NCBI GenBank assembly: GCA_016182045.1
Contig: JACOYE010000009.1
Span: 1,328 to 65,327, forward strand
Length of the DNA stretch: 64,000 nucleotides
Direction: 5' to 3'
Origin: Candidatus Microgenomates bacterium
Lineage (GTDB): Bacteria; Patescibacteriota; Microgenomatia; Daviesbacterales; UBA10151
Part shown: piece after piece, positions 11,544-59,716 of the stretch
Layout of the letters: each line of letters starts with the position of its first letter
Numbering within the stretch: position 1 is the first letter of the stretch
Position numbers and translations under genes: made by a program
The notes under the pieces: model-generated
What the model saw: only the letters and a program-made list of their open reading frames with translations
Told to the model about the DNA's origin: nothing
The model's database searches: none

Positions 11544-11548
11544 CTAAC

Positions 11549-11770
11549 TATTCTTTCGGGGTTTTGTGTAAGTCAAAATCGGTGGTAAAACTCCACGATC
11601 CCGCACCGTCTGGTGCAGGAACGAACTGGTGAAAATCCAGTAGCGACCGTACAGTCGGAATGAAAGAAAGACGTCGTCCCCGCGAAAGCGGGGAACCATA
11701 AAATAATTATATGGATCCCAGACTTGATCTGGAATGACTGATGAATTTAGCCCCGAAAGGGGCTTTTTTG
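11549..11770 (+). ncRNA. orphan small RNA (~220 nt), class unknown
   Basis: Its own promoter lies upstream. It is GC-rich with multiple hairpins (GCACC-GTCT-GGTGC, ACTGG-TGAAAAT-CCAGT, CCCCGC-GAAA-GCGGGG). It ends in a canonical intrinsic terminator (AGCCCCGAAAGGGGCT plus T6 at 11749-11770). No + strand gene follows, and the minus-strand ORF over it looks spurious. Confidence 0.5.
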
Positions 11771-14984: not shown

Positions 14985-16307
14985 TCAACTTGATGATTTC
15001 TCCAGATATGCTAAAGCTTCATTTGCTCTTTTTAAAGTCTCTTCTTCCCCCAATATTTTAACACTCTCAAAAAGCGGCGGGCTAACCAATTGGCCCGAGA
15101 TAGCCACTCTGATCAACTGGAAAGTTTGGGTCGCTGAAAGTCCATGGCTTTCACCAAATTGTCTGAATGTTTTTTCAAACATATCAGCCTTCCATGGTTT
15201 CTCCATCTTTTCCATCACCTCTAACATCTCTTTCAATAACTTCACTATGTCCAACCTTTTCTTAACCACTTTTTCAAATACCTCTTGTTCGTACTCCGGT
15301 TTTTCCCAGAGAAAATCTGTCAGCGGTATGAAATCCGATAACTTCTTAATCCTCTCTTTAACAAGCGGTATAACTTTATCTAGCTCCTCATCTGCTGGAT
15401 GTTCTAGTTTTCCTTGAGAGATATCCTTCAAATATTCTAAGATTTGAGTTTTGAGTTTTGAGTTTTGAGTTTTCCTAATATATTCTCCATTCATCCATTC
15501 CAGTTTCCGGACATCAAAAATGGCAGGGGCAGTATTTAAATCTTTCAAATCAAATTCTTCTATCATCTCCGACAGAGTTAAAATTTCTTTTCCAGAGGGA
15601 GGGGTCCATCCCAAAAGCACCAGGAAATTGATCAACGCCTCTGGTAAAAATCCATCTCTTTTATAATCTAAAACACCTATGCTTCCATGTCTTTTGGAAA
15701 GTTTACTTCTATCAGTTGCTAAAATATTGGGAGAGTGGGCAAACTGCGGAATATCCCATCCAAATGATTCATACAACATGATGTGTTTTGGTGTTGATGA
15801 AATCCAGTCTTCACCACGAGTCACATGAGAAATGTTCATCAGATGATCGTCAACCACGGAGGCCAAATGATAGGTGGGATATTCATCGGATTTTAAAATT
15901 ACAAAATCTTCCACCTGCCTATTCTCAAACTTAATGCTCTTATTACCCACTAAATCAATCCAGGAAGTTGAACCCTCTTTTTTTGTCTTAAAGAAAATTG
16001 CTTCTTCCTGTTGGTAAGCTTTATCAGAATTCAATAATTGAAGTGCATGTTCTTTATAAATATCCAATCGTTCTGACTGAAGGATTACTTTCTCGTCCCA
16101 ACTCAGACCAAGCCACTTTAAGCTATCATAAATGGCACTATAACTTTCCTCAACTTCCCTTTTTTTGTCGGTATCCTCAATTCTTAAAAGAAATTTACCC
16201 CTGTTGTGTTTTGCAAAAAGATAGGTAAAAAGTGCAGTTCTCATATTACCCACATGAGGATTACCGGTAGGTGATGGTGCATATCTTACTCTAACTTCCT
16301 CAGCCAT
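14985..16307 (-). CDS. gltX: glutamate--tRNA ligase
   Basis: Class I HIGH region (APSPTGNPHVGNMRTALF) and KMSKS-like motif (KLSKRHG). Confidence 0.85.
   Translation of the reverse strand: MAEEVRVRYAPSPTGNPHVGNMRTALFTYLFAKHNRGKFLLRIEDTDKKREVEESYSAIYDSLKWLGLSWDEKVILQSERLDIYKEHALQLLNSDKAYQQEEAIFFKTKKEGSTSWIDLVGNKSIKFENRQVEDFVILKSDEYPTYHLASVVDDHLMNISHVTRGEDWISSTPKHIMLYESFGWDIPQFAHSPNILATDRSKLSKRHGSIGVLDYKRDGFLPEALINFLVLLGWTPPSGKEILTLSEMIEEFDLKDLNTAPAIFDVRKLEWMNGEYIRKTQNSKLKTQILEYLKDISQGKLEHPADEELDKVIPLVKERIKKLSDFIPLTDFLWEKPEYEQEVFEKVVKKRLDIVKLLKEMLEVMEKMEKPWKADMFEKTFRQFGESHGLSATQTFQLIRVAISGQLVSPPLFESVKILGEEETLKRANEALAYLEKSSS
15445..15473. repeat. tandem heptamer (TGAGTTT x4) inside the gltX coding sequence
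   Basis: tgagttttgagttttgagttttgagtttt. It is read through as KLKTQ... on the coding strand. Confidence 0.7.
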
Positions 16308-18265: not shown

Positions 18266-18355
18266 GCAATAATTTAAAAATTAAAGTGTAAAATGAAAAA
18301 TGACAGATTAAAATGTAAAATGTTCGATTAAATTTTTAATTTTACATTGTCATTT

Positions 18356-19729
18356 TTATTTTTTATTTTTAATATTTACATTTAGTCTTATATCAACTCT
18401 CTCCATATCTCTTGGGAAAAGGGCGGCCTCTCTGATATTTGCAAGACCTAAGATTTGCATGATCATTCTCTCCAGTCCAAAAGAAAATCCTCCCTCAGGC
18501 GGCATACCGTATTTGAAGGCCATTAAATACATCTCAAAATCTTTTGGATCCATGCCGTGAGACTTTATTGACTCGACCAATTGTTGATAGTCATTTATTC
18601 TTTGACTTCCAGACAGTATTTCAATCCCTTTAAATAGTAAATCATAACTTAGGCTGTATTCTGAATTTTTTGGATCCGGCATGGTGTAAAAAGGCTTGGC
18701 AGCAGTTGGGAAATGAGTGACAGTTATAAAATCAGAATTGTGTTTCTTTTTTGCCCATTTGCATAGATCCTGCTCATCTTGGGGTGTTAAATCTTTTTCT
18801 TTCTTATTGTCTCTACCATATTCTTTAAGAATAACTTCCTGAGCTTCTCTTAAAGTTAATCGGGGAATTTTATTATAGACAATCTCCTCTGCACCATATT
18901 CTTTAAGATATAGCTTGGATGAATTTTGAACATGCTCCACCATGCTTATGGCAATACTTTCATAAATATCCATTAATTCATCAAAGGAGGTAAATCCAAA
19001 TTCACAATCCATTTGAGTAACTTCCGCAAGATGCCTGGTAGTGACTGAAGGTTCTGCCCTATATGCTTTGGTAATTGTAAAAACCCTCTCAAAAACAGGA
19101 ACTAACATCTGCTTATAAAGCTGGGGGCTTTGGGTCAAAAATGCTTTATGTTCAAAATATTCTATCCTAAATACCTCCGCACCACCTTCTGTGGATGAGG
19201 CAGCAATGGTTGGAACAACAACTTCAGTACAACCTAATTTTTGACAAACTTGTCTAAATGAAGAAAGCAAAGCTTCTTGGACTTTAAAAATGGCCTTGAT
19301 TTTTGGGTGTCTTAAGCTGAGAGTACGCCAGTCTAAAAGAGTTGGCAGTTCCAAATTAAGAGTTGGACCTCCCATGTCAAATGGCAACTCCGAAGCTTTT
19401 GATAAAATCTCTATACTTTCTGCTGAAATTTCAATTTCTCCAGTGGGAATATTTTTATTGACCAGATTGGTAGGCCTTTTGTTTACCTTACCTATAATGC
19501 AAACCACATCTTGCGGGCTTATCTCACCTCCGAGGTGAGCTGAAGATGTAACCTTGCTCACACCTCGGAGGTGTGTGTCTTGGGATACAACTACTTGTAT
19601 TAACCCAGTTCTATCCAAAACATCCAAAAATAAAATCTTCCCGTGATCGCGCCTGGTCTGAATCCAACCGTAAATGGTCACTATTTCGCCAACTTTATCA
19701 TTACAATCTAAAATTAAAGTTCTTTCCAT
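18356..19729 (-). CDS. aspS: aspartate--tRNA ligase, archaeal/eukaryal-type (class IIb; could be AsnRS)
   Basis: N-terminal OB anticodon-binding fold; class II motifs; C-terminal GGFSFGLERMIM...FPRD. At ~457 aa it fits archaeal-type AspRS. Confidence 0.65.
   Translation of the reverse strand: MERTLILDCNDKVGEIVTIYGWIQTRRDHGKILFLDVLDRTGLIQVVVSQDTHLRGVSKVTSSAHLGGEISPQDVVCIIGKVNKRPTNLVNKNIPTGEIEISAESIEILSKASELPFDMGGPTLNLELPTLLDWRTLSLRHPKIKAIFKVQEALLSSFRQVCQKLGCTEVVVPTIAASSTEGGAEVFRIEYFEHKAFLTQSPQLYKQMLVPVFERVFTITKAYRAEPSVTTRHLAEVTQMDCEFGFTSFDELMDIYESIAISMVEHVQNSSKLYLKEYGAEEIVYNKIPRLTLREAQEVILKEYGRDNKKEKDLTPQDEQDLCKWAKKKHNSDFITVTHFPTAAKPFYTMPDPKNSEYSLSYDLLFKGIEILSGSQRINDYQQLVESIKSHGMDPKDFEMYLMAFKYGMPPEGGFSFGLERMIMQILGLANIREAALFPRDMERVDIRLNVNIKNKK
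19524..19574. repeat. pair of CACCTCCGAGGTG-type palindromic motifs inside the AspRS coding sequence
   Basis: ctcacctccgaggtgag ... ctcacacctcggaggtgtg. Locally GC-rich, it encodes SAHLGGEISPQD within the N-terminal domain. Confidence 0.6.
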
Positions 19730-21145: not shown

Positions 21146-22726
21146 CTAATTTATTTTTACATCTTTCACTTTTAATTGCAGTTTTTCATCCCCATTAAAG
21201 TCATTTAACTCTGGGATATATGCCAAATCAATTTGTTGACCATTTTGTAACATGCTTTGTAGATCCCCCATTCCAAAAGCAATGGCATCAAATCCGTCGA
21301 CCTTAAACTTCAGATGTTTGCCTTCACCTACTGTTCTTATATCTGAAACTTGCATCTTTCTTGTTGCAAAAATGGGTCTGGGATTTCCCAAACCAAATGG
21401 CTCAAATTTATTCAATTGGTCAACCAATCCTTTGGTCAGTTGTTTTCCATCTACTTCCGCCTCAATTTGCAAAACCCGTTCCACCTCGTCCGGCAAAGCA
21501 ATCACAATCTCCTCCAGTCTTTTTTTAAATAAAGTAATATTTTTGGTGGCAATGGAAAATCCGGCAGCTTTAGGATGACCCCCTACATCAACCAATAAAT
21601 CGGCATGTTTTCTAATCAGCTCCACAATGTTTACTCCATCAACGGATCTGGCTGATCCTTTAGAAACAGTCTCACCTAAAGATATAGCTATGCTGGGACG
21701 CAGGTACTCATCAGTAATCCTGCCAGCAATAAGACCAATTATTCCCGGCGACCACTTGTGAGATGTCAAAATATGAATTTTTTTACTTCGATCAATCAAA
21801 AGCTTGGCCTGCTCTATTGCGTCTGTTGTAAGCTGTTGACGGGTGGTATTGGTTTCAGATAAAAGTTTAGCCAGTTTTTTAGCTTTTTGCGGATCTTTTG
21901 TGCAAAGTAATCTTAAAGAATCTATGGCATGTTCAAGTCTTCCCATGGCATTAAGACGAGGCCCTAAAATATGGCCAACCTCATAAGATGAGATTTCTCC
22001 CAACATTAGTGATGATTCATTTATTAAAGATAAAAGTCCCAAGTTTGTTGTTCTATTTAGAATTTTAAATCCCTCGAAAACAAACGATCTACCTAAACCA
22101 ACAAGTGGCATTAAATCACAAACCGTGGCAAGGGATACAAATTGCAACAACTCTTCCCTTAATTCCCTTTTCACTATTCCCTCTATTAAACACCAAGCTA
22201 CCGCCGCTCCGCACATCTTGGTGGAATGAACTATCTCATATGCGACAGGTTTTTTATCTAAAGGTAGATGATGATCAGTAATAATCAAATCCAAACCAAT
22301 TTCTCTGGCATATTCTGCTTGTTCCAAGGCAACAATGCCATTATCAACCGTAACAACCAATGATGCGCCTTGATTCTTGGCAAAATCTAAACCCACTTTT
22401 GACAACCCGTATCCTTCTCTTTCTCTGTGCGGGATATATGGTAAAACCTTAGCACCCATCGATGTCAGCCCTTTGTATAGAATGGCTGATCCACAGATCC
22501 CATCAACATCATAATCCCCATATACTATTATCGGTTCTCCATTCTTAATGGCCTGCAAAATTCTTTTTTGAGCTTTTTCAGTTCCTGGAATCTTCAAATC
22601 TTTTTCAAAATCAGAAATCTTAGGATGAAAAAACTGATGCTTTTCTTCTTGAGTTATAAGTCCTCTATTAATTAATAGCTGCTTAATAAGATTATCTGAT
22701 TTTTTCGGGGCTATTCTCCACTTCAT
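21146..22726 (-). CDS. recJ: single-stranded-DNA-specific exonuclease RecJ (DHH/DHHA1)
   Basis: DHH motifs VYGDYDVDGICGSAIL and ITDHH; DHHA1-like C-terminal part. Confidence 0.8.
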   Translation of the reverse strand: MKWRIAPKKSDNLIKQLLINRGLITQEEKHQFFHPKISDFEKDLKIPGTEKAQKRILQAIKNGEPIIVYGDYDVDGICGSAILYKGLTSMGAKVLPYIPHREREGYGLSKVGLDFAKNQGASLVVTVDNGIVALEQAEYAREIGLDLIITDHHLPLDKKPVAYEIVHSTKMCGAAVAWCLIEGIVKRELREELLQFVSLATVCDLMPLVGLGRSFVFEGFKILNRTTNLGLLSLINESSLMLGEISSYEVGHILGPRLNAMGRLEHAIDSLRLLCTKDPQKAKKLAKLLSETNTTRQQLTTDAIEQAKLLIDRSKKIHILTSHKWSPGIIGLIAGRITDEYLRPSIAISLGETVSKGSARSVDGVNIVELIRKHADLLVDVGGHPKAAGFSIATKNITLFKKRLEEIVIALPDEVERVLQIEAEVDGKQLTKGLVDQLNKFEPFGLGNPRPIFATRKMQVSDIRTVGEGKHLKFKVDGFDAIAFGMGDLQSMLQNGQQIDLAYIPELNDFNGDEKLQLKVKDVKIN

Positions 22727-22735
22727 ATTATTCCA

Positions 22736-22794
22736 CCTCCGAGGTGTAATTGCTCGCCTCGCTGCGAAGCGGGCATTTCTTCACCTCGGAGGTG
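22736..22794. repeat. composite palindromic element in the recJ-cca intergenic region
   Basis: CACCTCCGAGGTG at 22736-22748, then GCTCGCCTCGCTGCGAAGCGGGC at 22752-22774, then CACCTCGGAGGTG at 22782-22794. Confidence 0.7.
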
Positions 22795-22844
22795 TATTGA
22801 TAGAGCAAATTGTATCACACACCCCAGGAGTGTAAAATGACTAC

Positions 22845-24254
22845 ATGGATTATAAATTACCTAATGAGGTAAAAATTATTTTAAATAAATTTCAAAAAGC
22901 TAATTTCCAAATTTATATTGTGGGAGGGGCTGTCCGTGACCTTTTAATGGGCAAGGTTGTAAGAGATTGGGATTTTACCACAGATGCTAAACCTGAGGAA
23001 ATTTTGAAAATAATCCCTGGGGGTTTTTATGACAATAAATTTGGTACGGTAGGTTTGGCAGTTGAGGATGGAGTATTTGAGATTACAACGATGAGGAAGG
23101 AGGGCGTCTACAAAGATTTCCGTCATCCTGACTCGGTTTCCTGGACCAATAAAATTGAGGAGGATTTAGGCAGACGAGATTTTACTGTCAATGCTATGGC
23201 ATTAGTTCCTAAAAGCGTCATTGCGAGCGAAGCGAAGCAATCTTCCACGGAAGATCGCCACGTCGCTAGCGCTCCTCGCGATGATAAATGGATGTTAGCA
23301 GATCCATTTCATGGACAACAGGACATCAAGGATAAACTGACTAGAGCAGTTGGAGATCCTAATACCCGTTTCCAAGAAGATGCTCTACGTCTAATAAGAG
23401 CTATCAGATTTGCCACAGAATTAGATTTTGACATAGATCCTAAAACTTTTGAGGCAATCCAAAAAAATGCTCCTCTTTTAAATGAGATTGCCAATGAAAG
23501 AGTTCGTGATGAGCTGTTTAAAATACTTGCCTCAGATAATGCTTATGAAGGAATCATCAAGTTAAGAGAGGCAAAATTACTACAAATTATTTTGCCGGAG
23601 CTGGAAAAATGCTTTGGTATTGTGCAGCAAGGACCAAAGCATGATAGAACTTATGATATTGGTGAACACTCTTTACTCACCCTTAAATACACCCCCTCTG
23701 GTGATTCATTAGTAAGATTGGCTTCTCTACTTCATGATATTGGTAAAACAGATACGGTAAAAGCTTCTCCCGATGGCAATGTCACTTTTTATCAGCATGA
23801 TGTGGTTGGCGGTGAGATTGTCAAAAAAATTGCCAAAAGATTTAATCTGTCTAAAAAACAAGCTGAAAAATTATCTCGATTAGTCAGATGGCACATGTTT
23901 ACAGTTTCAGAACACCAAACCGATTCTGCCATCAGAAGATTCATTAAAAATGTAGGTCTAGACAATATTAATGACATGATGGCACTACGAATCGGTGATA
24001 GATTAGGTGGTGGTACACAAACAGAAACCTCTTGGAGGATGGAAAAATTTCAACAAAGAATTAAACAGGTCCTCAAAAAACCATTTTCCATAACTGATCT
24101 TAAGGTTAATGGCAATGATGTGATGGAAGTACTTAACATAAAACCGGGCCCCAAAGTCGGCGAAATACTGCAGAAACTTTTTGAAGAAATCTTAGAAGAT
24201 TCTAATAAAAATAATCGTGATTATCTTTTAAATAGAATAAAGAATATAGAATAA
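22845..24254 (+). CDS. cca: CCA-adding enzyme (tRNA nucleotidyltransferase with HD domain)
   Basis: Pol-beta NTase head (IYIVGGAVRDLLMGK...DWDFTT) and an HD domain (LLHDIGK). Confidence 0.8.
   Translation: MDYKLPNEVKIILNKFQKANFQIYIVGGAVRDLLMGKVVRDWDFTTDAKPEEILKIIPGGFYDNKFGTVGLAVEDGVFEITTMRKEGVYKDFRHPDSVSWTNKIEEDLGRRDFTVNAMALVPKSVIASEAKQSSTEDRHVASAPRDDKWMLADPFHGQQDIKDKLTRAVGDPNTRFQEDALRLIRAIRFATELDFDIDPKTFEAIQKNAPLLNEIANERVRDELFKILASDNAYEGIIKLREAKLLQIILPELEKCFGIVQQGPKHDRTYDIGEHSLLTLKYTPSGDSLVRLASLLHDIGKTDTVKASPDGNVTFYQHDVVGGEIVKKIAKRFNLSKKQAEKLSRLVRWHMFTVSEHQTDSAIRRFIKNVGLDNINDMMALRIGDRLGGGTQTETSWRMEKFQQRIKQVLKKPFSITDLKVNGNDVMEVLNIKPGPKVGEILQKLFEEILEDSNKNNRDYLLNRIKNIE
23216..23286. repeat. 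GC-rich imperfect palindromic element inserted in-frame in cca
   Basis: cgtcattgcgagcgaagcgaagcaatctt...cgctagcgctcctcgcgatga. Its first 29 nt exactly equal the reverse complement of 24327-24355. It encodes SVIASEAKQSSTEDRHVASAPRDDK. Confidence 0.7.
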
Positions 24255-24261
24255 AGAGTTG

Positions 24262-24358
24262 AATCGTCATTGCGAGGAGTAAAACGACGAAGCAATCTTG
24301 ATAGAATTAAATTAAATAATCATTAAAAGATTGCTTCGCTTCGCTCGCAATGACGTAA
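24262..24358. repeat. MITE-like hairpin element with ~29-nt inverted arms, 3' of cca
   Basis: Left arm cgtcattgcgag[gagtaaaacgac]gaagcaatctt; right arm aagattgcttcgcttcgctcgcaatgacg; AT-rich loop between. Confidence 0.7.
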
Positions 24359-24410
24359 AATTTAATGGCCTAATTTTTCTTCCCAAAATAATTGAACAGT
24401 AATTTATTAT

Positions 24411-24435
24411 TCCATTGATTTAAATCATTAAAACA
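24411..24435. promoter_or_regulatory. palindromic operator-like motif, copy 1 (TCCATTGATTTAAATCATTAAAACA)
   Basis: Contains the 12-bp perfect palindrome TGATTTAAATCA, 15 nt upstream of ATG 24450. Confidence 0.6.
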
Positions 24436-24449
24436 GATAGAATTAAAGC

Positions 24450-24902
24450 ATGGGACAAATATCTAAATATCCTATCTCTAAAGACGTGGCTGATAGAATT
24501 TTTGATGTATTTATTAAGTCTTTCATTAAAGTTAAAAATGACAAGGATGCTCAAATTTTGGCCAATGATTTATTCACACCTACTGAAAGAATCATGTTGG
24601 CAAAAAGACTTGCTATTGCCTTTTGTTTAATGCAAGGATATGAATATAGAGAAATTTCCAAACTCTTAAGAGTAAGCGTAACTACTGTTGCGTCTGTAAA
24701 TATGACATTAAAATACGGTAGCAATGGTTATAGAACCATACTTGAGCGGATTAATAAAGAAGAAAAGCTTGAGGATCTATTCAAAAATATCGCCGAGAAA
24801 GTTTTAGCAATGGGTTCTTATGGCAAAGGTAGTGGGACTTGGAGATACTTACGAGCAGAAGTTCAAAAGTCTAGGGATAAAAAATTAAAAAAGCCATTTT
24901 GA
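24450..24902 (+). CDS. TrpR-like YerC/YecD-family HTH protein
   Basis: TPTERIMLAKRLAIAFCLMQGYEYREISKLLRVSVTTV is the YerC/YecD signature. Confidence 0.65.
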   Translation: MGQISKYPISKDVADRIFDVFIKSFIKVKNDKDAQILANDLFTPTERIMLAKRLAIAFCLMQGYEYREISKLLRVSVTTVASVNMTLKYGSNGYRTILERINKEEKLEDLFKNIAEKVLAMGSYGKGSGTWRYLRAEVQKSRDKKLKKPF

Positions 24903-24927
24903 TCCATTGATTTAAATCATTAAAACA
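24903..24927. promoter_or_regulatory. palindromic operator-like motif, copy 2
   Basis: tccattgatttaaatcattaaaaca sits between the upstream stop codon and ATG 24933. Confidence 0.6.
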
Positions 24928-24932
24928 AATAT

Positions 24933-25709
24933 ATGGGAGTTATAAAGCCGCCATGGATTTCCAAAAGATGGTTTAATAAAGTTCCTTTTAATTACTGTGA
25001 TCATTTTGGTGATAAGAAGCAACTGGCCACTATCTGTAAAATTTGTGATGAAGAAATTAAAACAATAGAAAAATATAGAAGAGAAGGTAAGGATCCTTAT
25101 GTTTGGGAAAACGTTTTTAAAGAGGTAGCTAATGATTTGGCGGAATCAATAAGACTCCTTTACCAGGGAGCTAAGAAATGGGGAATAGATTTGGATGGCT
25201 TACCGGATGTGGAAGAACCTGAACTACCAAGGTCAGATACTTATCCAATTTATCGCTTAGTTACAAAATATAGTGATGGAGTAAGACAAATAATCAAAGA
25301 GCTTGAAGCTGTACCAATTGAGACCGATACTGAATTATTAGAAAAATCTGTTGACGTCTTAGCCCATTCTGAACACTACATTGTTGCTAAAATAGGCAGA
25401 GCCTTAAGTAGCAGATGGAGATGGAAAAATGACCCAATTTTGGATGATACCCATGATGATAAGACGTCAGCATTCCTGGCATTTGTTGCAATAGAGAGAA
25501 ATTCAAGAGCTCTTCTTGCACTCTCTAAACACAAACCCCTAGGGCACTTAAGAACAAAAAATCTTAAACTGGCAAAGTTGAGTTTAGAGCTTTGCAGTGT
25601 GATCAAAGAAGAATTTTTCCCTGAATATAAATTAAATTATGAAGAATTTGGAGTCGAAGAATTAGATGTTTACCTGAAACGCCTTGGATCCATTGATTTA
25701 AATCATTAG
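24933..25709 (+). CDS. hypothetical protein with an N-terminal Cys cluster
   Basis: CDHFGDKKQLATICKICDEE. Helical, no recognisable family. Its last codons are encoded by motif copy 3. Confidence 0.45.
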   Translation: MGVIKPPWISKRWFNKVPFNYCDHFGDKKQLATICKICDEEIKTIEKYRREGKDPYVWENVFKEVANDLAESIRLLYQGAKKWGIDLDGLPDVEEPELPRSDTYPIYRLVTKYSDGVRQIIKELEAVPIETDTELLEKSVDVLAHSEHYIVAKIGRALSSRWRWKNDPILDDTHDDKTSAFLAFVAIERNSRALLALSKHKPLGHLRTKNLKLAKLSLELCSVIKEEFFPEYKLNYEEFGVEELDVYLKRLGSIDLNH

Positions 25710-25713
25710 AACA
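25689..25713. promoter_or_regulatory. palindromic operator-like motif, copy 3
   Basis: tccattgatttaaatcattagaaca overlaps the stop codon of 24933..25709. Confidence 0.5.
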
Positions 25714-25756
25714 TTTATAGACAATCCTTATCTTACTTATTCTTAAAAGAATACTA

Positions 25757-31615: not shown

Positions 31616-32017
31616 TTAAAGTAATTTAACAAATTTAAATTTGGTTTGTTTGATAAACTGTTCATCTGCTGTTATCAGTATTGTCCCATTAGCTTTGGCC
31701 ACAACTGCATATAACATATCATAAACAGAAGTTTTATATTTTTTAGCCAGTCTTGCTGCTTCTTTTACATCATCCTCTGTAGGGTGGTATATTTCAATTT
31801 GTGTTTTATAAATTATGGTTATAGACCTTGTAACTGCTCGTTGAGGAATAGTTGCTTTCGTAGCCAAAGTATTTGCCACTTCATATAAAAGAAGGTCTAA
31901 AGAGATGATTCGCTCAAGTCCATCTGAATGATTTTGAAATATTTCTTTTACCTTTATATGACCTTCTTCGTAGGGTAAAACTAGCTTATTAGCTACTGAT
32001 GCATCAATTACAATCAT
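31616..32017 (-). CDS. vapC: PIN-domain toxin VapC
   Basis: MIVIDASVA... with PIN-domain acidic residues. Overlaps the upstream antitoxin by 4 nt. Confidence 0.7.
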   Translation of the reverse strand: MIVIDASVANKLVLPYEEGHIKVKEIFQNHSDGLERIISLDLLLYEVANTLATKATIPQRAVTRSITIIYKTQIEIYHPTEDDVKEAARLAKKYKTSVYDMLYAVVAKANGTILITADEQFIKQTKFKFVKLL

Positions 32018-32304
32018 TCTTGATATCTTATTTCTCTTAAGGCTTTAACTGAATCGAAGCCCTTAGTGTATTTTGCATTTTCCTTTGCCACCTCTTCGAT
32101 TTCTTTCATCAACTGTTGAGTCCTTTCTTCCCCTCCTTGAGCGGTTTTAGACTCAACTACTTTTTCACCAGCTTCACGCAAAACTTTCGCCAAGCTTTTC
32201 TTTTCCTTAGCAGCTTTAATCTTTAGCTTGGTATGCAGCTCTTCAGGTAATCTAATATGAGTAGCAATCCAATTCATAATAGTGGTACTATTGTACCATA
32301 GCAA
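32014..32304 (-). CDS. vapB: ribbon-helix-helix antitoxin (VapB-like)
   Basis: RLPEELHTKLKIKAAKEKKSLAKVL is RHH-like. It precedes and overlaps vapC. The real start is probably the internal MNWIAT. Confidence 0.6.
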   Translation of the reverse strand: MLWYNSTTIMNWIATHIRLPEELHTKLKIKAAKEKKSLAKVLREAGEKVVESKTAQGGEERTQQLMKEIEEVAKENAKYTKGFDSVKALREIRYQE

Positions 32305-34548: not shown

Positions 34549-34909
34549 GTGCCTAGGAAGAGAGTAAGCCAGATTCTGTTTTCTCGCTTCGCGAAGCGAG
34601 TAGATGATCATTTATCTAATGCTCCTCATTTCGACTAGTTGGCGAGCAGCCTAAGTCGGTTCTAGGATTGCAGCGGGGAGGATTGCCCTTCGACTCGTCC
34701 CGATTACATCGGGACTCGCTCAGGGCTATAGCCCTTTGCTTATCGAATACCCTGTGGCTTGATCGTTTCACTCGGCGCCACCCGAATCGTCACTGTTGCT
34801 CTATACTCGCGGTCACCCGGTCTCGCCTTGCGGCGGACACCCTACTCTTTGCTGTCTGGACTTTCCTGTCCCGATTTAATCGGGACCGATCATCCTTCTT
34901 CCTAGGCTT
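34549..34909 (-). ncRNA. rnpB: RNase P RNA (bacterial type A-like)
   Basis: On the minus strand: P1 AGCCTAGGAAGA paired with TCTTCCTAGGC; P2 GATGATC with GATCATC; P3 hairpin GGTCCCGATTAAATCGGGAC; universally conserved ACAGGAAAGTCCAGAC (P4 5' strand); CAACAGTGA (J11/12-like); P4 3' strand CTAGAACCGACTTAG. A TATAAT -10 sits just upstream. The overlapping + strand ORF 34668-34967 is spurious. Confidence 0.8.
34583..34600. repeat. perfect GC palindrome CTCGCTTCGCGAAGCGAG embedded in rnpB
   Basis: It lies between the P2 3' strand and the P1 3' strand of the RNase P RNA and belongs to the same repeat family as the coding-region insertions. Confidence 0.6.
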
Positions 34910-36948: not shown

Positions 36949-38286
36949 ATGAAGATTGCCATATTGGGTGCTGGTTTTACCGGACTTTCTGCTGCCTTTA
37001 GACTTTTACAAAAAGGTTATCAGGTGACTATTTTTGAGAAGGAAGAAAGTTCAGGCGGATTGGCCGTGGGGTTTAAATTAGCCAACTGGCAGTGGAGTTT
37101 AGAAAAAGGTTATCATCACTGGTTTACCAATGATGATTCCATTTTGCATTTGGCCAAAGAGATAAATCACCAGGTAATCATTGAACGTCCTAGTACAGAT
37201 GTTTTTACTCATGGTAAGCGTTTACCTTTTGATAGTGCGACCACCCTGATAAATTTTAGATACCTACCAATTATTGACAGAGTCCGGGTAGCTTTAATCT
37301 TGGCATTTTTAAAAATACTACCAAGCCATCATTTACTTGATGGTAAAAAAGCTTTACCTTGGATCAGAAAATTTATGGGGGAAAAATCCACCAAACTTAT
37401 CTGGAACCCCCTTTTTACTTCTAAATTTGGCAAGTTTAGTGAACAGATTGCTCTCACCTGGTTTTGGGCCAGAATTAAAAAAAGAACCCCTTCTTTGGCT
37501 TATCCCCAAGAAGGATTTCAAGCTTTTGCCGATCATCTAGGTAAAGAGATTAAAAAAATGGGTGGGGAAATCTTGCTAAATACTCAAGTTGTCGAATTGG
37601 TAAGTAGAAATAACGATGTTGTTGTTAAAACTACCAACTACCCGCTTCGCGACTTTCGTCGACGCAGGCGCGAGGCGAGCCAACTACCAACTACCAACTA
37701 CTATTTCGACAAAGTAATAGTTACTTTACCCTCTCCTATCTTTACAAAAATTGCCCATGGACTGCCCAAGCAATACACGGATAGAATAACCTCAATTCCT
37801 CATCTGCATGCTCAGGTATTAATCCTGATTTTAAACAAACCTTTTATGGATAAAACCTATTGGTTAAATATTACAGAAAAGGATTTCCCTTTCTTGATCT
37901 TGGCAGAACATACCAACTTTATGGATTCCAAATACTATGGCGGACAACATATCTTATATATAGGCAATTATCTGCCGCCTGATCATCCGTATCTTAAGAT
38001 GACTGTGAAAGAATTATTAAAAGTTTTTGACCCTTTTCTTAAAAAGATAAATCCAAACTACCAACTACATACTACAAACTACCAACTATTCATTGGTCCT
38101 TTTGCCCAGCCCATTGTCACAGTTGACTACCCAAACTTGATTCCATCATTTACAACTCCACTAAAAGGAGTTTATCTTGCCAACTTAGACATGGTCTATC
38201 CTTGGGATAGGGGAACAAATTATGCTGTTGAGCTGGGAGAGAAAATTGCTGATATGATAGATAAAGATCATGCCAAAGTTAAATAA
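36949..38286 (+). CDS. FAD-dependent oxidoreductase (amine-oxidase / phytoene-desaturase-like Rossmann fold)
   Basis: Dinucleotide-binding motif IAILGAGFTGLSAA...IFEKE. First gene of the GT-C cluster. Confidence 0.65.
   Translation: MKIAILGAGFTGLSAAFRLLQKGYQVTIFEKEESSGGLAVGFKLANWQWSLEKGYHHWFTNDDSILHLAKEINHQVIIERPSTDVFTHGKRLPFDSATTLINFRYLPIIDRVRVALILAFLKILPSHHLLDGKKALPWIRKFMGEKSTKLIWNPLFTSKFGKFSEQIALTWFWARIKKRTPSLAYPQEGFQAFADHLGKEIKKMGGEILLNTQVVELVSRNNDVVVKTTNYPLRDFRRRRREASQLPTTNYYFDKVIVTLPSPIFTKIAHGLPKQYTDRITSIPHLHAQVLILILNKPFMDKTYWLNITEKDFPFLILAEHTNFMDSKYYGGQHILYIGNYLPPDHPYLKMTVKELLKVFDPFLKKINPNYQLHTTNYQLFIGPFAQPIVTVDYPNLIPSFTTPLKGVYLANLDMVYPWDRGTNYAVELGEKIADMIDKDHAKVK
37641..37681. repeat. 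GC-rich palindromic element inserted in-frame in the FAD-oxidoreductase gene
   Basis: cccgcttcgcgactttcgtcgacgcaggcgcgaggcgagcc is ~75% GC in an AT-rich gene and encodes PLRDFRRRRREAS. It shares end motifs CCCGCTTCGC...GCGAGGCGAGCC with 54102-54130 and 22752-22774. Confidence 0.7.
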
Positions 38287-53423: not shown

Positions 53424-54077
53424 TTACTTCTTTTTATTCAGATTTTCAACCACTTCTTTAACCACCTCATATTCAAAACCTCTTCTCATCAAAAACTCAT
53501 ATGCTTTTTTGCGAAATTCCATGGAGTCCAGATTTTTCCATTTACTGGCCTTCCGCTCCAAAGCACTTTCTGCCAACTCAGTTTGATTACCATCTCCTTT
53601 CAATGCCTCTATGATTATGTTCCGATCGACACCTTTTTGTAGAAGCTCTGCGGTGATTGCTCGATTACCTTTATATTTTGATATCCGCTTTGATCTAACC
53701 CATTCTTTAGCAAATTTCTCATCATCCACCATTCCTTTCTGTCGCAGTTTCTGAATTAATAGTTCCACAACAACTTCTGAAATCTCCTCTTTATCTTTAA
53801 CTTTTCTTTTAAAAGATAGACTTCTTAAATAGTTTCTGACTTCTTTTTCAGAACGGGGTCTAATATTCCATAACCTGTACATTCGTTCCATCAGCTTCCC
53901 AACTTCCGCCTCAAACAACAGCTTTTCCACATCTGATTCCTCAAGTAACTTCCCAGGGACTAAACGGTATTCCACTACCAAATCCTCATCTGCCCCAAAA
54001 GCAAAAGCACCATCTAGATAAATATTAAAACGTCGTGGATTTTTCTTTTGAGACTCTACTGAAGTAATTTTGGACAT
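53424..54077 (-). CDS. recX: regulatory protein RecX
   Basis: Three-repeat helical RecX architecture, downstream of recA. Confidence 0.65.
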   Translation of the reverse strand: MSKITSVESQKKNPRRFNIYLDGAFAFGADEDLVVEYRLVPGKLLEESDVEKLLFEAEVGKLMERMYRLWNIRPRSEKEVRNYLRSLSFKRKVKDKEEISEVVVELLIQKLRQKGMVDDEKFAKEWVRSKRISKYKGNRAITAELLQKGVDRNIIIEALKGDGNQTELAESALERKASKWKNLDSMEFRKKAYEFLMRRGFEYEVVKEVVENLNKKK

Positions 54078-55186
54078 TAAGCAGCAACTTCTTCAATTAT
54101 ACCCGCTTCGCCCGCGAAGCGAGGCGAGCCAGTTTCTTCCTCTTTTCCAACAACCATTTCTTTCCCTTCCTTTTGTTTACCCCAGGCTTCCCTTATTTCT
54201 TTTTCCAAATTTAGGGCCTCTTTCTTATTGGCTTTTAAGTAATCTATTGCAGCTTGTCTGCCCTGACCCAACATGATTTCATTCCATTTTATAAAGGCTC
54301 CTGACTTTTGTAGAATTCCAAGCTCCAATCCCACATCCAAAAGTTCTCCTTCGTGAGAAATTCCATTTTCATCCATATCAAATTCGGCAATTCTAAATGG
54401 GGGAGCCACTTTATTTTTGACAACCTTAACTCTGTGTCTTGAACCAACCACTGTGTCTCCCACTTTGATATTTTCAATTTTTCTAATATCTAGTCTAACT
54501 GATGTATAGAATTTTAAAGCTAATCCACCTGGAGTAGTCTCCGGGTTCCCAAACATCACTCCAATTTTTTGTCTTAACTGGTTAGTAAAAATAATAATCG
54601 TATTTGTATTTGATACTGCTCCGGTTAATTTTCTTAAAGCCTGAGACATCAGTCTTGCCTGCATACCCATCACAGCATCTCCCATCTCCCCTTCAAGCTC
54701 TGCCCTAGGCACCAAAGCTGCAACTGAGTCTATTACCAATACATCAATTCCGCCAGATCTGATCAAAGCCTCTGCAATTTCTAAAGCCTGCTCGCCAGTA
54801 TCTGGTTGGGAAATTAAAAGATCATCTAAATTAACACCTATCTTTTGTGCTCTTTGGGGATCCAAAGCATGCTCTGCATCAATAAATGCTGCCACTCCAC
54901 CTCTTTTTTGTGCCTCAGCTATAACATGAAGACAGACTGTGGTTTTTCCGCCTGCCTCTGGGCCAAAAACTTCAATAATCCTGCCTCTTGGCAAACCTCC
55001 AACTCCTAAAGCAAGATCTAAAGCGATAGAACCTGTGGGGATAACTTGGGTAGTCAGTTTCTCTGCTCTTTCACCCAACCGCATAATAGAACCAGTACCA
55101 TATTGCTTTTGGATCTGTTGCATGGCCGCGGCAATTGCAGCTTTACGGGCCTCATCATTGGGTTGTGCCATAATCCTATTATACAA
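54077..55186 (-). CDS. recA: recombinase RecA
   Basis: Walker [10 protein letters not shown] and the L1/L2 loop regions. The C-terminal tail contains a GC-rich element insertion. Confidence 0.9.
54102..54130. repeat. GC-rich palindromic element in-frame in the recA C-terminal tail
   Basis: cccgcttcgcccgcgaagcgaggcgagcc encodes SPRFAGEAG within the RecA tail. Confidence 0.7.
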
Positions 55187-58210: not shown

Positions 58211-58215
58211 ATTGT

Positions 58216-58240
58216 TCCATTGATTTAAATCATTAGAACA
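58216..58240. promoter_or_regulatory. palindromic operator-like motif, copy 4
   Basis: tccattgatttaaatcattagaaca sits between the redoxin stop codon and the acyP ATG at 58254. Confidence 0.6.
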
Positions 58241-58253
58241 TTTTGTTAATAAA

Positions 58254-59658: not shown

Positions 59659-59716
59659 AAGAACCTCGCTTCGCGAGAACCTTGCGATAGTTCCGACTTC
59701 GTCGTAATAACTATCT

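Follow-up and report, generated by a model that had tools for sequence, protein, structure and literature searches.

We analyzed a 64-kb stretch of DNA from a tiny groundwater bacterium that its cca homologs assign to Candidatus Daviesbacteria, a lineage of the Candidate Phyla Radiation (CPR); the DNA is gene-dense and AT-rich, with a GC content of 30–45% across its length (contig JACOYE010000009.1, positions 1,328 to 65,327; hereafter the window, that is, the whole stretch). Short GC-rich palindromes are located in and around its cca gene. A sequence-only reading had described them as one family built on shared cores (the CGCTTCGCGAAGCG core); every sequence that it quoted is present, within 1–3 nt of where it had been placed, but the palindromes separate into three unrelated families of short hairpins (A, B and C), each with its own conserved ends. 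Family A appears to be a variant of the motif that is recognized by Ssn, a small GIY-YIG nuclease known from Neisseria. The hosts of the elements are protein genes, including essential ones, one RNA gene and one spacer, and all of the coding copies are in frame. When motif counts are compared with expectation from dinucleotide-preserving shuffles (used for all such counts below), every motif is found 2–4 times in the window vs 0 expected. The host gene cca and the copies are the following:

22845–24254, + strand: cca (CCA-adding tRNA nucleotidyltransferase, 469 aa; from the list of open reading frames, ORFs), host of the A1+A2 dimer.
23216–23244, + strand: A1 (family A), with CGTC tag, ATTGC/GCAAT stem, GAG/GAA internal loop, GCGAAGC mini-hairpin and CTT tail; left arm of the cca insert.
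23245–23249: loop between A1 and A2, 5 nt; A1, loop and A2 together are the 71-nt cca insert.
23250–23286, − strand: A2 (family A, diverged), TATCATCGCGAG-GAGCGCTAGCGAC-GTGGCGATCTTC, with the compensated stem ATCGC/GCGAT.
24265–24299, + strand: A3 (family A), with interior GAGTAAAACGAC; left arm of a gene-less dimer 3′ of cca.
24300–24326: spacer between A3 and A4, AT-rich, 27 nt; the position of the ssn gene in the full modules described below (L195 and L292).
24327–24355, − strand: A4 (family A), exact reverse complement of A1; together with A3 it makes up the dimer 3′ of cca, as the right arm.
22734–22794: family B dimer in the recJ-cca spacer, CACCTCCGAGGTG … CACCTCGGAGGTG.
22752–22773, − strand: C1 (family C), CCCGCTTCGC-A-GCGAGGCGAGC, nested inside the B dimer of the spacer.
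19525–19573: family B dimer in the Asp/Asn-tRNA synthetase (AspRS) gene (18356–19729, − strand).
37641–37680, + strand: C2 (family C), in an FAD-dependent oxidoreductase gene (36949–38286).
54102–54130, + strand: C3 (family C), in the C-terminal tail of recA (54077–55186, − strand).
34583–34600: palindrome CTCGCTTCGCGAAGCGAG, 18 nt and perfect, in the RNase P RNA gene (34549–34905, − strand).

The units of family A are 26–35 nt in length, run from (C/T)GTCAT to AATC(T/C), and are oriented by their non-palindromic 5′ tag. Their consensus is CGTCATTGCGAG-(variable mini-hairpin)-GAAGCAATCY, laid out as 5′-(C/T)GTC-ATTGC-GAG-(variable mini-hairpin)-GAA-GCAAT-C-Y; that is, an unpaired terminal tag (CGTC or TGTC) is followed by an AT-starting stem and ends in a short unpaired 3′ tail. 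The geometry is a 5-bp basal stem, a 3×3 internal loop and a variable inner hairpin, with interiors of 4–44 nt. In units that were chosen by their position in cca and not by pairing, the basal stems covary (ATTGC/GCAAT, ATCGC/GCGAT, ATTCC/GGAAT, ATTCT/AGAAT and ATCCC/GGGAT). The pattern GTCATYGCGAG..GCRATC occurs three times in the window (0 expected), and the 29-mer CGTCATTGCGAGCGAAGCGAAGCAATCTT occurs twice (0.00 expected), in cca (23216–23244, + strand) and, as its exact reverse complement, downstream (24327–24355, − strand). The sequence-only reading had seen this pair and taken it as a sign of transposition or recombination; the repetition is indeed not chance, but it does not show a recent local event, because the same 26-mer is found in Novosphingobium and Gottesmanbacteria: it is the commonest 26–27-mer of the family worldwide, and the identity of A1 and A4 is that of the family consensus.

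Family B is an inverted pair of CACCTCSGAGGTG (dimer form CACCTCCGAGGTG … CACCTCGGAGGTG); this 13-mer contains the strong ribosome-binding sequence GGAGGTG and is found four times in the window (19525, 19561, 22734 and 22782; 0 expected). Family C is CCGCTTCGC…GCGAGGCGAGC, and its ends, CCCGCTTCGC-(1–19 nt)-GCGAGGCGAGC, form an 11-bp stem with an identical mismatch and wobble in every copy; the pattern CCCGCTTCGC..GAGGCGAGC is found three times (22752–22773 on the minus strand, 37641–37680 and 54102–54129; 0 expected). The related copies that had been listed along with those near cca are divided accordingly: 37641–37681 and 54102–54130 belong to family C and 19524–19574 belongs to family B, but the palindrome in the RNase P RNA gene (34583–34600) is a separate item, unique within the window and of uncertain family, and the hairpin at 59664–59677 (14 nt, 5 bp, over the metK ribosome-binding site) could be tied to none of the families. 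Folding, which had been proposed as a check, was computed for single-stranded DNA (ssDNA) with z-scores against shuffles; the three dimers fold far better than shuffles (24262–24358, −25.9 kcal/mol, z = −7.3; 22731–22797, z = −6.7; 19522–19576, z = −5.8), but the cca insert folds weakly (z only −1.5). A scan of 22600–24500 with Rfam identified no family, with matches at chance level only.

Alignment with relatives shows that every testable copy is an insertion relative to the orthologous site; empty sites, which the sequence-only reading had suggested looking for in cca, recA and oxidoreductase genes, are found in relatives for cca, the oxidoreductase gene, the RNase P RNA gene and the recJ-cca spacer. 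For cca we compared 80 loci from Microgenomates genomes (L123–L202; 81 sequences with the window). The homologs of cca contain PF01743, PF12627, PF01966 and PF13735; the best match is 77% identical, and the named ones are CCA tRNA nucleotidyltransferases of Ca. Daviesbacteria. The loop between RDFT(I/V)NA and DPF contains 35 aa in the window vs 8–10 aa in most of the 80 relatives, and the site is empty in the nearest relative, L123; the copy in the window adds 25 in-frame codons (translated VIASEAKQSSTEDRHVASAPRDD) to a surface loop between conserved head-domain motifs and is tolerated there. In the AlphaFold model (mean pLDDT 86.8), only residues 127–146, inside the insert, have values below 50, so the inserted peptide is predicted to be disordered.

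In other species, the same cca loop contains other Ssn-type units, either dimers or singletons, with the stems ATTGC, ATTCC, ATTCT or ATCCC; these begin 11–12 or 19–23 nt past the motif. In still others it contains family B dimers, that is, one loop is occupied by different families in different species. Counted on a rough neighbor-joining tree, the presence or absence of inserts in this loop changed at least 11 times for the A type and four times for family B.

The recJ-cca spacer is 118 nt in length in the window vs 17–45 nt, without family B, in most of the relatives that have a clean spacer. A single B unit is found in L132 and L139 and a B dimer in L146 and L131; the B unit that adjoins recJ provides the GGAGGTG ribosome-binding site of recJ. 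The spacer of L146 has the same B dimer but lacks C1, so C1 is a 21-nt insertion with a known empty site. The cca, spacer and RNase P sites show no target-site duplication.

The B dimer in the AspRS gene encodes HLRGVSKVTSSAHLGG in frame; the OB-fold domain loop that contains it is ~14 residues shorter in most relatives than in the window, and other relatives have B dimers or different palindromes there. A second loop in cca (between KFGT and EITT; 10 aa at baseline) is also a hot spot in Daviesbacteria. It and the AspRS loop carry palindrome-encoded peptides that differ by species (e.g., TSKVGSDSFEV, ISYQLSDKKQKKSDDRRL and HLRGE…HLGG), and the repeat families are therefore not limited to the window's three.

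C2 contributes PLRDFRRRRREAS in frame, an addition of 13 aa at a beta-turn of the oxidoreductase; the 13 residues are absent from the closest ortholog (P0242, 76% identity), and at the same turn another ortholog carries VIARSETTKQS, encoded by a family A unit. The turn (37620–37705) is coded by tandem heptamers (CAACTAC here, AAACTAC in the relative L298). At the DNA level, C2 is a 39-nt insertion located exactly between two units of the native CAACTAC array. We considered whether the 12-nt direct repeat that surrounds C2 is a target-site duplication and ruled this out, because the native heptamer array is also present at the empty site.

In an Rfam alignment, the RNase P palindrome takes up the optional P19 position and adds bases between P2 and P4 (3′ strands); this position contains 29 nt in the window vs 10–11 nt in ten relatives (+18 nt). 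The inserted lengths for which an empty site is known are 21 nt (22752–22773), 18 nt (34583–34600) and 39 nt (37641–37680); all are multiples of three, two of them in non-coding DNA, and this may be chance. The catalytic domain of the Glu/Gln-tRNA synthetase (14985–16307, − strand) matches Pfam in two separate stretches, and this may be another insertion.

Outside the window, family A is pan-bacterial, being common to CPR, alphaproteobacteria, cyanobacteria and viral contigs. In IMG/VR, the query GTCATTGCGAG-N(4–34)-GAAGCAATC matches at least 120 contigs or stretches with GC contents of 30–72%; CGAAGC, an interior that the window also has, is the most frequent, ahead of the other CGNAGC variants, and the bases that flank the units are pyrimidines. 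Thirty-three plasmid or megaplasmid records in PLSDB contain family A, among them those of Novosphingobium, Methylosinus, Methylobacterium, Calothrix, Aulosira, Planktothrix, Psychrobacter and Legionella; on plasmids the copies are often inverted pairs. In Novosphingobium resinovorum pSA1 (NZ_CP017076.1, L121), 27 of 27 nt are identical at no fewer than 40 places. This alphaproteobacterial megaplasmid has a GC content of 66% and the same 26–27-mer as the CPR window (37% GC), in inverted pairs around a CAGGGC…GCCCTG spacer. A1 is identical to units both in pSA1 and in Gottesmanbacteria L195.

Gottesmanbacteria L195 identifies the partner gene that the sequence-only reading overlooked, a small GIY-YIG nuclease of the Ssn family. 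Here, a family A unit on the + strand and a second on the − strand enclose an ORF of 98 aa, a GIY-YIG domain protein (PF01541, E = 2e-13). Its homologs number over 6,700; identity is 60–74% among the best 120 listed, of which the named ones are from CPR, cyanobacteria and Chloroflexi. We determined the context of such homologs in 80 metagenomic loci, counting only strict family A units and using a flank limit of 150 nt. A unit is located upstream of the GIY-YIG gene in 42 of 77 loci (median distance 27 nt) and an inverted unit downstream in 48 of 75 (median 10 nt); 33 of 72 genes have family A on both sides and 51 of 72 on at least one, and the density of family A elsewhere in these loci is 0.22 per kb. 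The two flanking units differ in their interiors in 31 of 32 pairs, as do those of the window dimers, which are likewise heterodimers. A fixed side for the longer unit was considered and rejected (upstream unit longer in 19 pairs, shorter in 9 and equal in 4). Interiors nearly identical to that of A3 flank the ssn genes in L236 and L278, and the module of ssn and inverted family A units is also found in Daviesbacteria (GCA_016187035.1, L292). Gene-less family A dimers are common, and the A dimers in the window are gene-less versions of the ssn module. When ORFs were clustered at 120 of the IMG/VR family A loci, only phage structural proteins were found, with a length cut-off that is too high for the small ssn.

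In Neisseria, SsnA is a 94-aa GIY-YIG protein that cuts ssDNA next to NTS, CGTCATTCCCGCGMAVGCGGGAATCYRG (Chenal et al., 2025, Nat Commun, PMC11893778); the Neisseria Ssn system modulates natural transformation, 71% of the genes for SsnA homologs across bacteria have such motifs nearby, and 2% of the NTS copies in N. meningitidis are inside genes (PMC11893778). The Daviesbacteria partner P0133 (98 aa) is 43% identical over its full length (E = 3e-29) to a 94-aa protein of N. gonorrhoeae, and the 1.5 kb around the gene for that protein contains 12 NTS repeats; its match to UPF0213 (PDB 1ZG2) is weak (E = 0.0011), and NCBIfam has no model for the partner protein. The partner is thus, as judged by alignment, homologous to Neisseria SsnA (cd10448, ~94 aa). 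Because family A is paired with ssn genes, because the protein is homologous to one flanked by NTS, and because the units match the published description in tag, orientation and frame, we assign family A as a putative Ssn-related motif (SRM) in the class of CGTC-tagged REPs; it would be the ssDNA recognition site of a single-domain GIY-YIG Ssn nuclease of ~96 aa, the gene for which normally has non-identical, inverted copies on its two sides. In L139 (Daviesbacteria JAQUSJ010000001, 1100–1600), a tRNA gene adjoins another small GIY-YIG gene, one of the UPF0213 type and different from ssn; a partial duplicate of the 5′ half of the tRNA is located upstream, and the arrangement resembles that of a tRNA gene hit by an insertion.

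Families B and C are rarer than family A and so far restricted to this lineage; both are REP-like hairpins and also insertions. Family B is represented by 21 groups in the 81 cca sequences, in Daviesbacteria only and mostly inside genes, where it is read as HLRGE…HLGG; it is absent from IMG/VR. Besides its three window copies, family C has three more in relatives: two lie within Ssn-type units, as their interior (L153, and L128 at 17152), and one in the spacer of such a dimer (L128 at 6319); its matches in IMG/VR are mostly chance, in GC-rich DNA. In the literature, the DNA words of the elements and the peptides that they encode match only polymerase chain reaction primers or nothing, and we found nothing relevant on palindromic or intragenic insertions in CPR.

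Family A resembles the known Ssn/SRM/NTS system in that a hairpin repeat of 20–50 nt is oriented by a non-palindromic 5′ CGTCAT tag, the frame CGTCATT…AATCY is common to it and NTS, and inverted copies surround a single-domain GIY-YIG gene of ~94–98 aa across the family. It differs from NTS in its ATTGC/GCAAT stem, GAG/GAA internal loop and variable inner hairpin, and from the Neisseria system in its CPR host, its copy number (~2 per 100 kb vs hundreds per genome), the fraction of copies inside genes (~74% vs 2%), and the lack of ssn in the window. The CGTC-tagged REPs were defined as a class that includes Neisseria dRS3 and Rickettsia RPE-4 and RPE-6; they are mostly inverted dimers, often heterodimers, with in-frame intragenic dimers of 20–30 aa and no dedicated transposase (Di Nocera, De Gregorio and Rocco, 2013, BMC Genomics, PMC3733652). 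Family A shares with them the CGTC/TGTC tag, the AT-starting stem, the short 3′ tail, the inverted (hetero)dimers, the in-frame dimers of 20–30 aa and the lack of a transposase; however, the stems described for the class are continuous (8–9 bp, with loops of 4–5 nt), whereas family A has a 5-bp stem, an internal loop and an inner hairpin. CPR is outside the five phyla listed for the class, and family A is compared here with the description of the class as a whole. As in REP/REPIN-RAYT (Bertels and Rainey, 2011, PMC3116915) and IS200/IS605, the hairpins would be recognized as ssDNA, the unit is a doublet, and a single-copy enzyme gene is located between its own repeats; unlike in those systems, the enzyme is GIY-YIG and not HUH Y1, and the tag is CGTC and not GTAG.

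The sequence-only reading had likened the elements to Rickettsia palindromic elements (RPEs), and in kind this holds: both are dispersed, selfish palindromes of a reduced AT-rich genome, inserted in frame in conserved protein genes and also in RNA genes, and in the window a spacer as well. The classic RPE-1 type is 100–150 bp in length, specific to Rickettsia and unrelated in sequence to the elements described here, whereas the window elements are 13–97 nt, belong to three families, and in the case of family A cross phyla; in-frame insertion alone is common to the two. For family A the comparison is close, because RPE-4 and RPE-6 are themselves CGTC REPs (PMC3733652).

The extent of the repeats was determined in 1.57 Mb, that is, the window plus relatives. 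A generic detector (GTCAT plus any 5-bp stem) was dropped because its background was too high (93 matches vs ~60 in shuffles), and a GC-filtered detector of tagged units was adopted; it identified 34 tagged GC-rich units vs 1–4 in shuffles. Long open frames contain 25 of the 34 units (~74%) and 86% of the bases. The account that we favor, and consider likely, is that family A is linked to Ssn, that B and C are restricted to this lineage, and that all three colonize permissive sites. The repeats would spread while the DNA is single-stranded, during replication, repair or natural transformation. For family A, spread would start when Ssn recognizes a unit as ssDNA and cuts 5′ of the hairpin; repair or recombination would then spread or exchange units. 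Selection would remove the copies that break genes, and the survivors would be in-frame copies without stop codons, positioned in loops; most of the surviving copies would be intragenic because ~86% of the genome is coding and spacer DNA is nearly absent.

Several observations weigh against this account. The published SRM string HGTCWYN(0-2)YYVSBRHN(0-5)WNVSBRGN(0-2)RNCYNB matches NTS and not the window units, which fail because they have G at the first Y position of the stem; family A is called a variant here because the string, as transcribed, does not match it, although the regular expression may be too literal, and it also misses the NTS-like units of L127 and L124. The 64-kb window contains no ssn, other GIY-YIG gene or transposase (tblastn for ssn and GIY-YIG; Pfam on 70 ORFs), and no gene is associated with families B or C in the sequences examined. 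The copy number, ~2 per 100 kb, is far below the hundreds per genome in Neisseria. In cca, 11 of the 12 inserts of the family A type have one codon phase (GTC = Val; VIA…/VIP…/VIL…), with L127 alone differing (CHSG…); the common phase fits shared ancestry or peptide selection as well as repeated insertion. Finally, we know of no demonstration that Ssn mobilizes its motifs, of no strand-transfer chemistry of the Ssn enzyme, and of no ability of GIY-YIG enzymes to rejoin DNA.

Other kinds of mobile element would explain part of this. Classical REP/REPIN sequences mobilized by a RAYT (REP-associated tyrosine, Y1/HUH transposase), as in Pseudomonas or E. coli, are also short imperfect hairpins with inverted doublets that fold into long structures, singletons that resemble decayed doublets, and documented copies within genes (PMC3733652). 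However, the tag here is CGTC/TGTC instead of GTAG, CGTC REPs have no transposase association (Di Nocera et al., PMC3733652), the gene between the units encodes a GIY-YIG nuclease instead of a Y1 transposase, and Y1_Tnp matches none of the window ORFs; we consider a RAYT origin highly improbable. Equally little credence is due to ordinary MITEs (miniature transposable elements with inverted repeats), that is, deletion derivatives of insertion sequences with a DDE transposase that have terminal inverted repeats and generate target-site duplications. The element 3′ of cca, with its inverted arms of ~30 nt and AT-rich spacer, had been called MITE-like, and the apparent 12-nt direct repeat at the oxidoreductase copy would fit; but that label is misleading, because there is no target-site duplication at the cca, spacer or RNase P sites and the direct repeat is the native array, present at the empty site too. 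In addition, each arm is itself a conserved hairpin common to several phyla, and the window has no transposase.

Two further explanations require no mobile element. If the hairpins were immobile features selected by the host (regulatory RNA hairpins, terminators, structures that hide ribosome-binding sites, or adaptive protein loops), inherited vertically and repeat-like by convergence, then one would understand why a B unit supplies the ribosome-binding site of recJ and is found at the same place in L132, L139 and L146, why the hairpin 3′ of cca is located where REPs are thought to stabilize mRNA, why many species have expansions in the same loops of cca and AspRS, and why the cca inserts share a codon phase. 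This is nonetheless an unlikely explanation: identical or nearly identical units are found in unrelated genes, RNA genes and spacers, and family A in distant phyla; sister taxa differ, with the changes counted above at a single loop on the rough tree; the family found in the same loop varies among species; disorder is predicted for the inserted peptide; and no intrinsic terminator pattern was found, so that the hairpin 3′ of cca was rejected as a terminator. Local de novo origin, by template switching or hairpin-primed repair, could apply to B, C and the RNase P palindrome. In favor are the shortness of these elements (13–41 nt), the perfect palindrome of the RNase P RNA gene with its single occurrence in the window, the lack of family B in IMG/VR, and the fact that family C matches elsewhere are mostly chance, in GC-rich DNA. 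Yet the asymmetric, imperfect ends of C (CCCGCTTCGC / GCGAGGCGAGC) are the same, around differing interiors, in L128, in L153 and at all three window copies, and this counts against local origin because independent events would not repeat the same mismatches; the same B 13-mers also recur at several genes in several genomes. We regard local origin as improbable as well.

The window contains several other features. An AT-rich repeat of ~36 nt, TCCATTGATTTAAATCATTARAACA, has four copies (24406–24441, 24898–24933, 25684–25719 and 58211–58246), all intergenic and just upstream of + strand genes, one of which encodes a Trp-repressor-like protein; a perfect palindrome (TGATTTAAATCA) and TTGATT-17-TAGAAT, which is sigma-70-like, lie within it, and it is probably a shared promoter or operator. 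An FMN riboswitch (11548–11675, + strand; Rfam, 86.7 bits) is followed by no + strand ORF of at least 90 aa; the long ORFs that follow belong to the minus strand. Between the genes for a D-Ala-D-Ala carboxypeptidase and AspRS is an AT-rich inverted repeat (18271–18382) with arms of 51 nt, 75% complementary to each other and separated by 10 nt. There are also two likely toxin-antitoxin pairs, one with a Gp49-like and an HTH protein and one with a PIN domain protein and a small upstream ORF (1410–2060 and 31616–32304).

The favored account, with family A linked to Ssn and families B and C restricted to the lineage, extends the Ssn nuclease/hairpin system to CPR, with a variant that the published search motif misses; new here are the lineage, the sequence variant, the mostly intragenic life with shared hot-spot loops, and two unclassified companion families. 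For annotation, the words VIASEAKQS, PRNDG and HLRGE…HLGG in metagenomic proteins are repeat-encoded and can be masked or flagged. A bolder proposal, which we advance only tentatively and think doubtful, is that in CPR the Ssn-linked hairpins and at least two unclassified palindrome families have been inserted repeatedly into the same few surface loops (cca, AspRS and the oxidoreductase) and into RNase P RNA; if so, the mechanism of insertion would be targeted and ssDNA-directed, or else turnover would be very rapid; B and C would have partner enzymes of their own, and the repeats would be a major overlooked source of lineage-specific insertions in CPR proteins and RNAs. As they stand, the repeats are a concrete source of insertions in CPR proteins and RNase P RNA, and the shared hot-spot loops are a natural test bed for how hairpin repeats spread.

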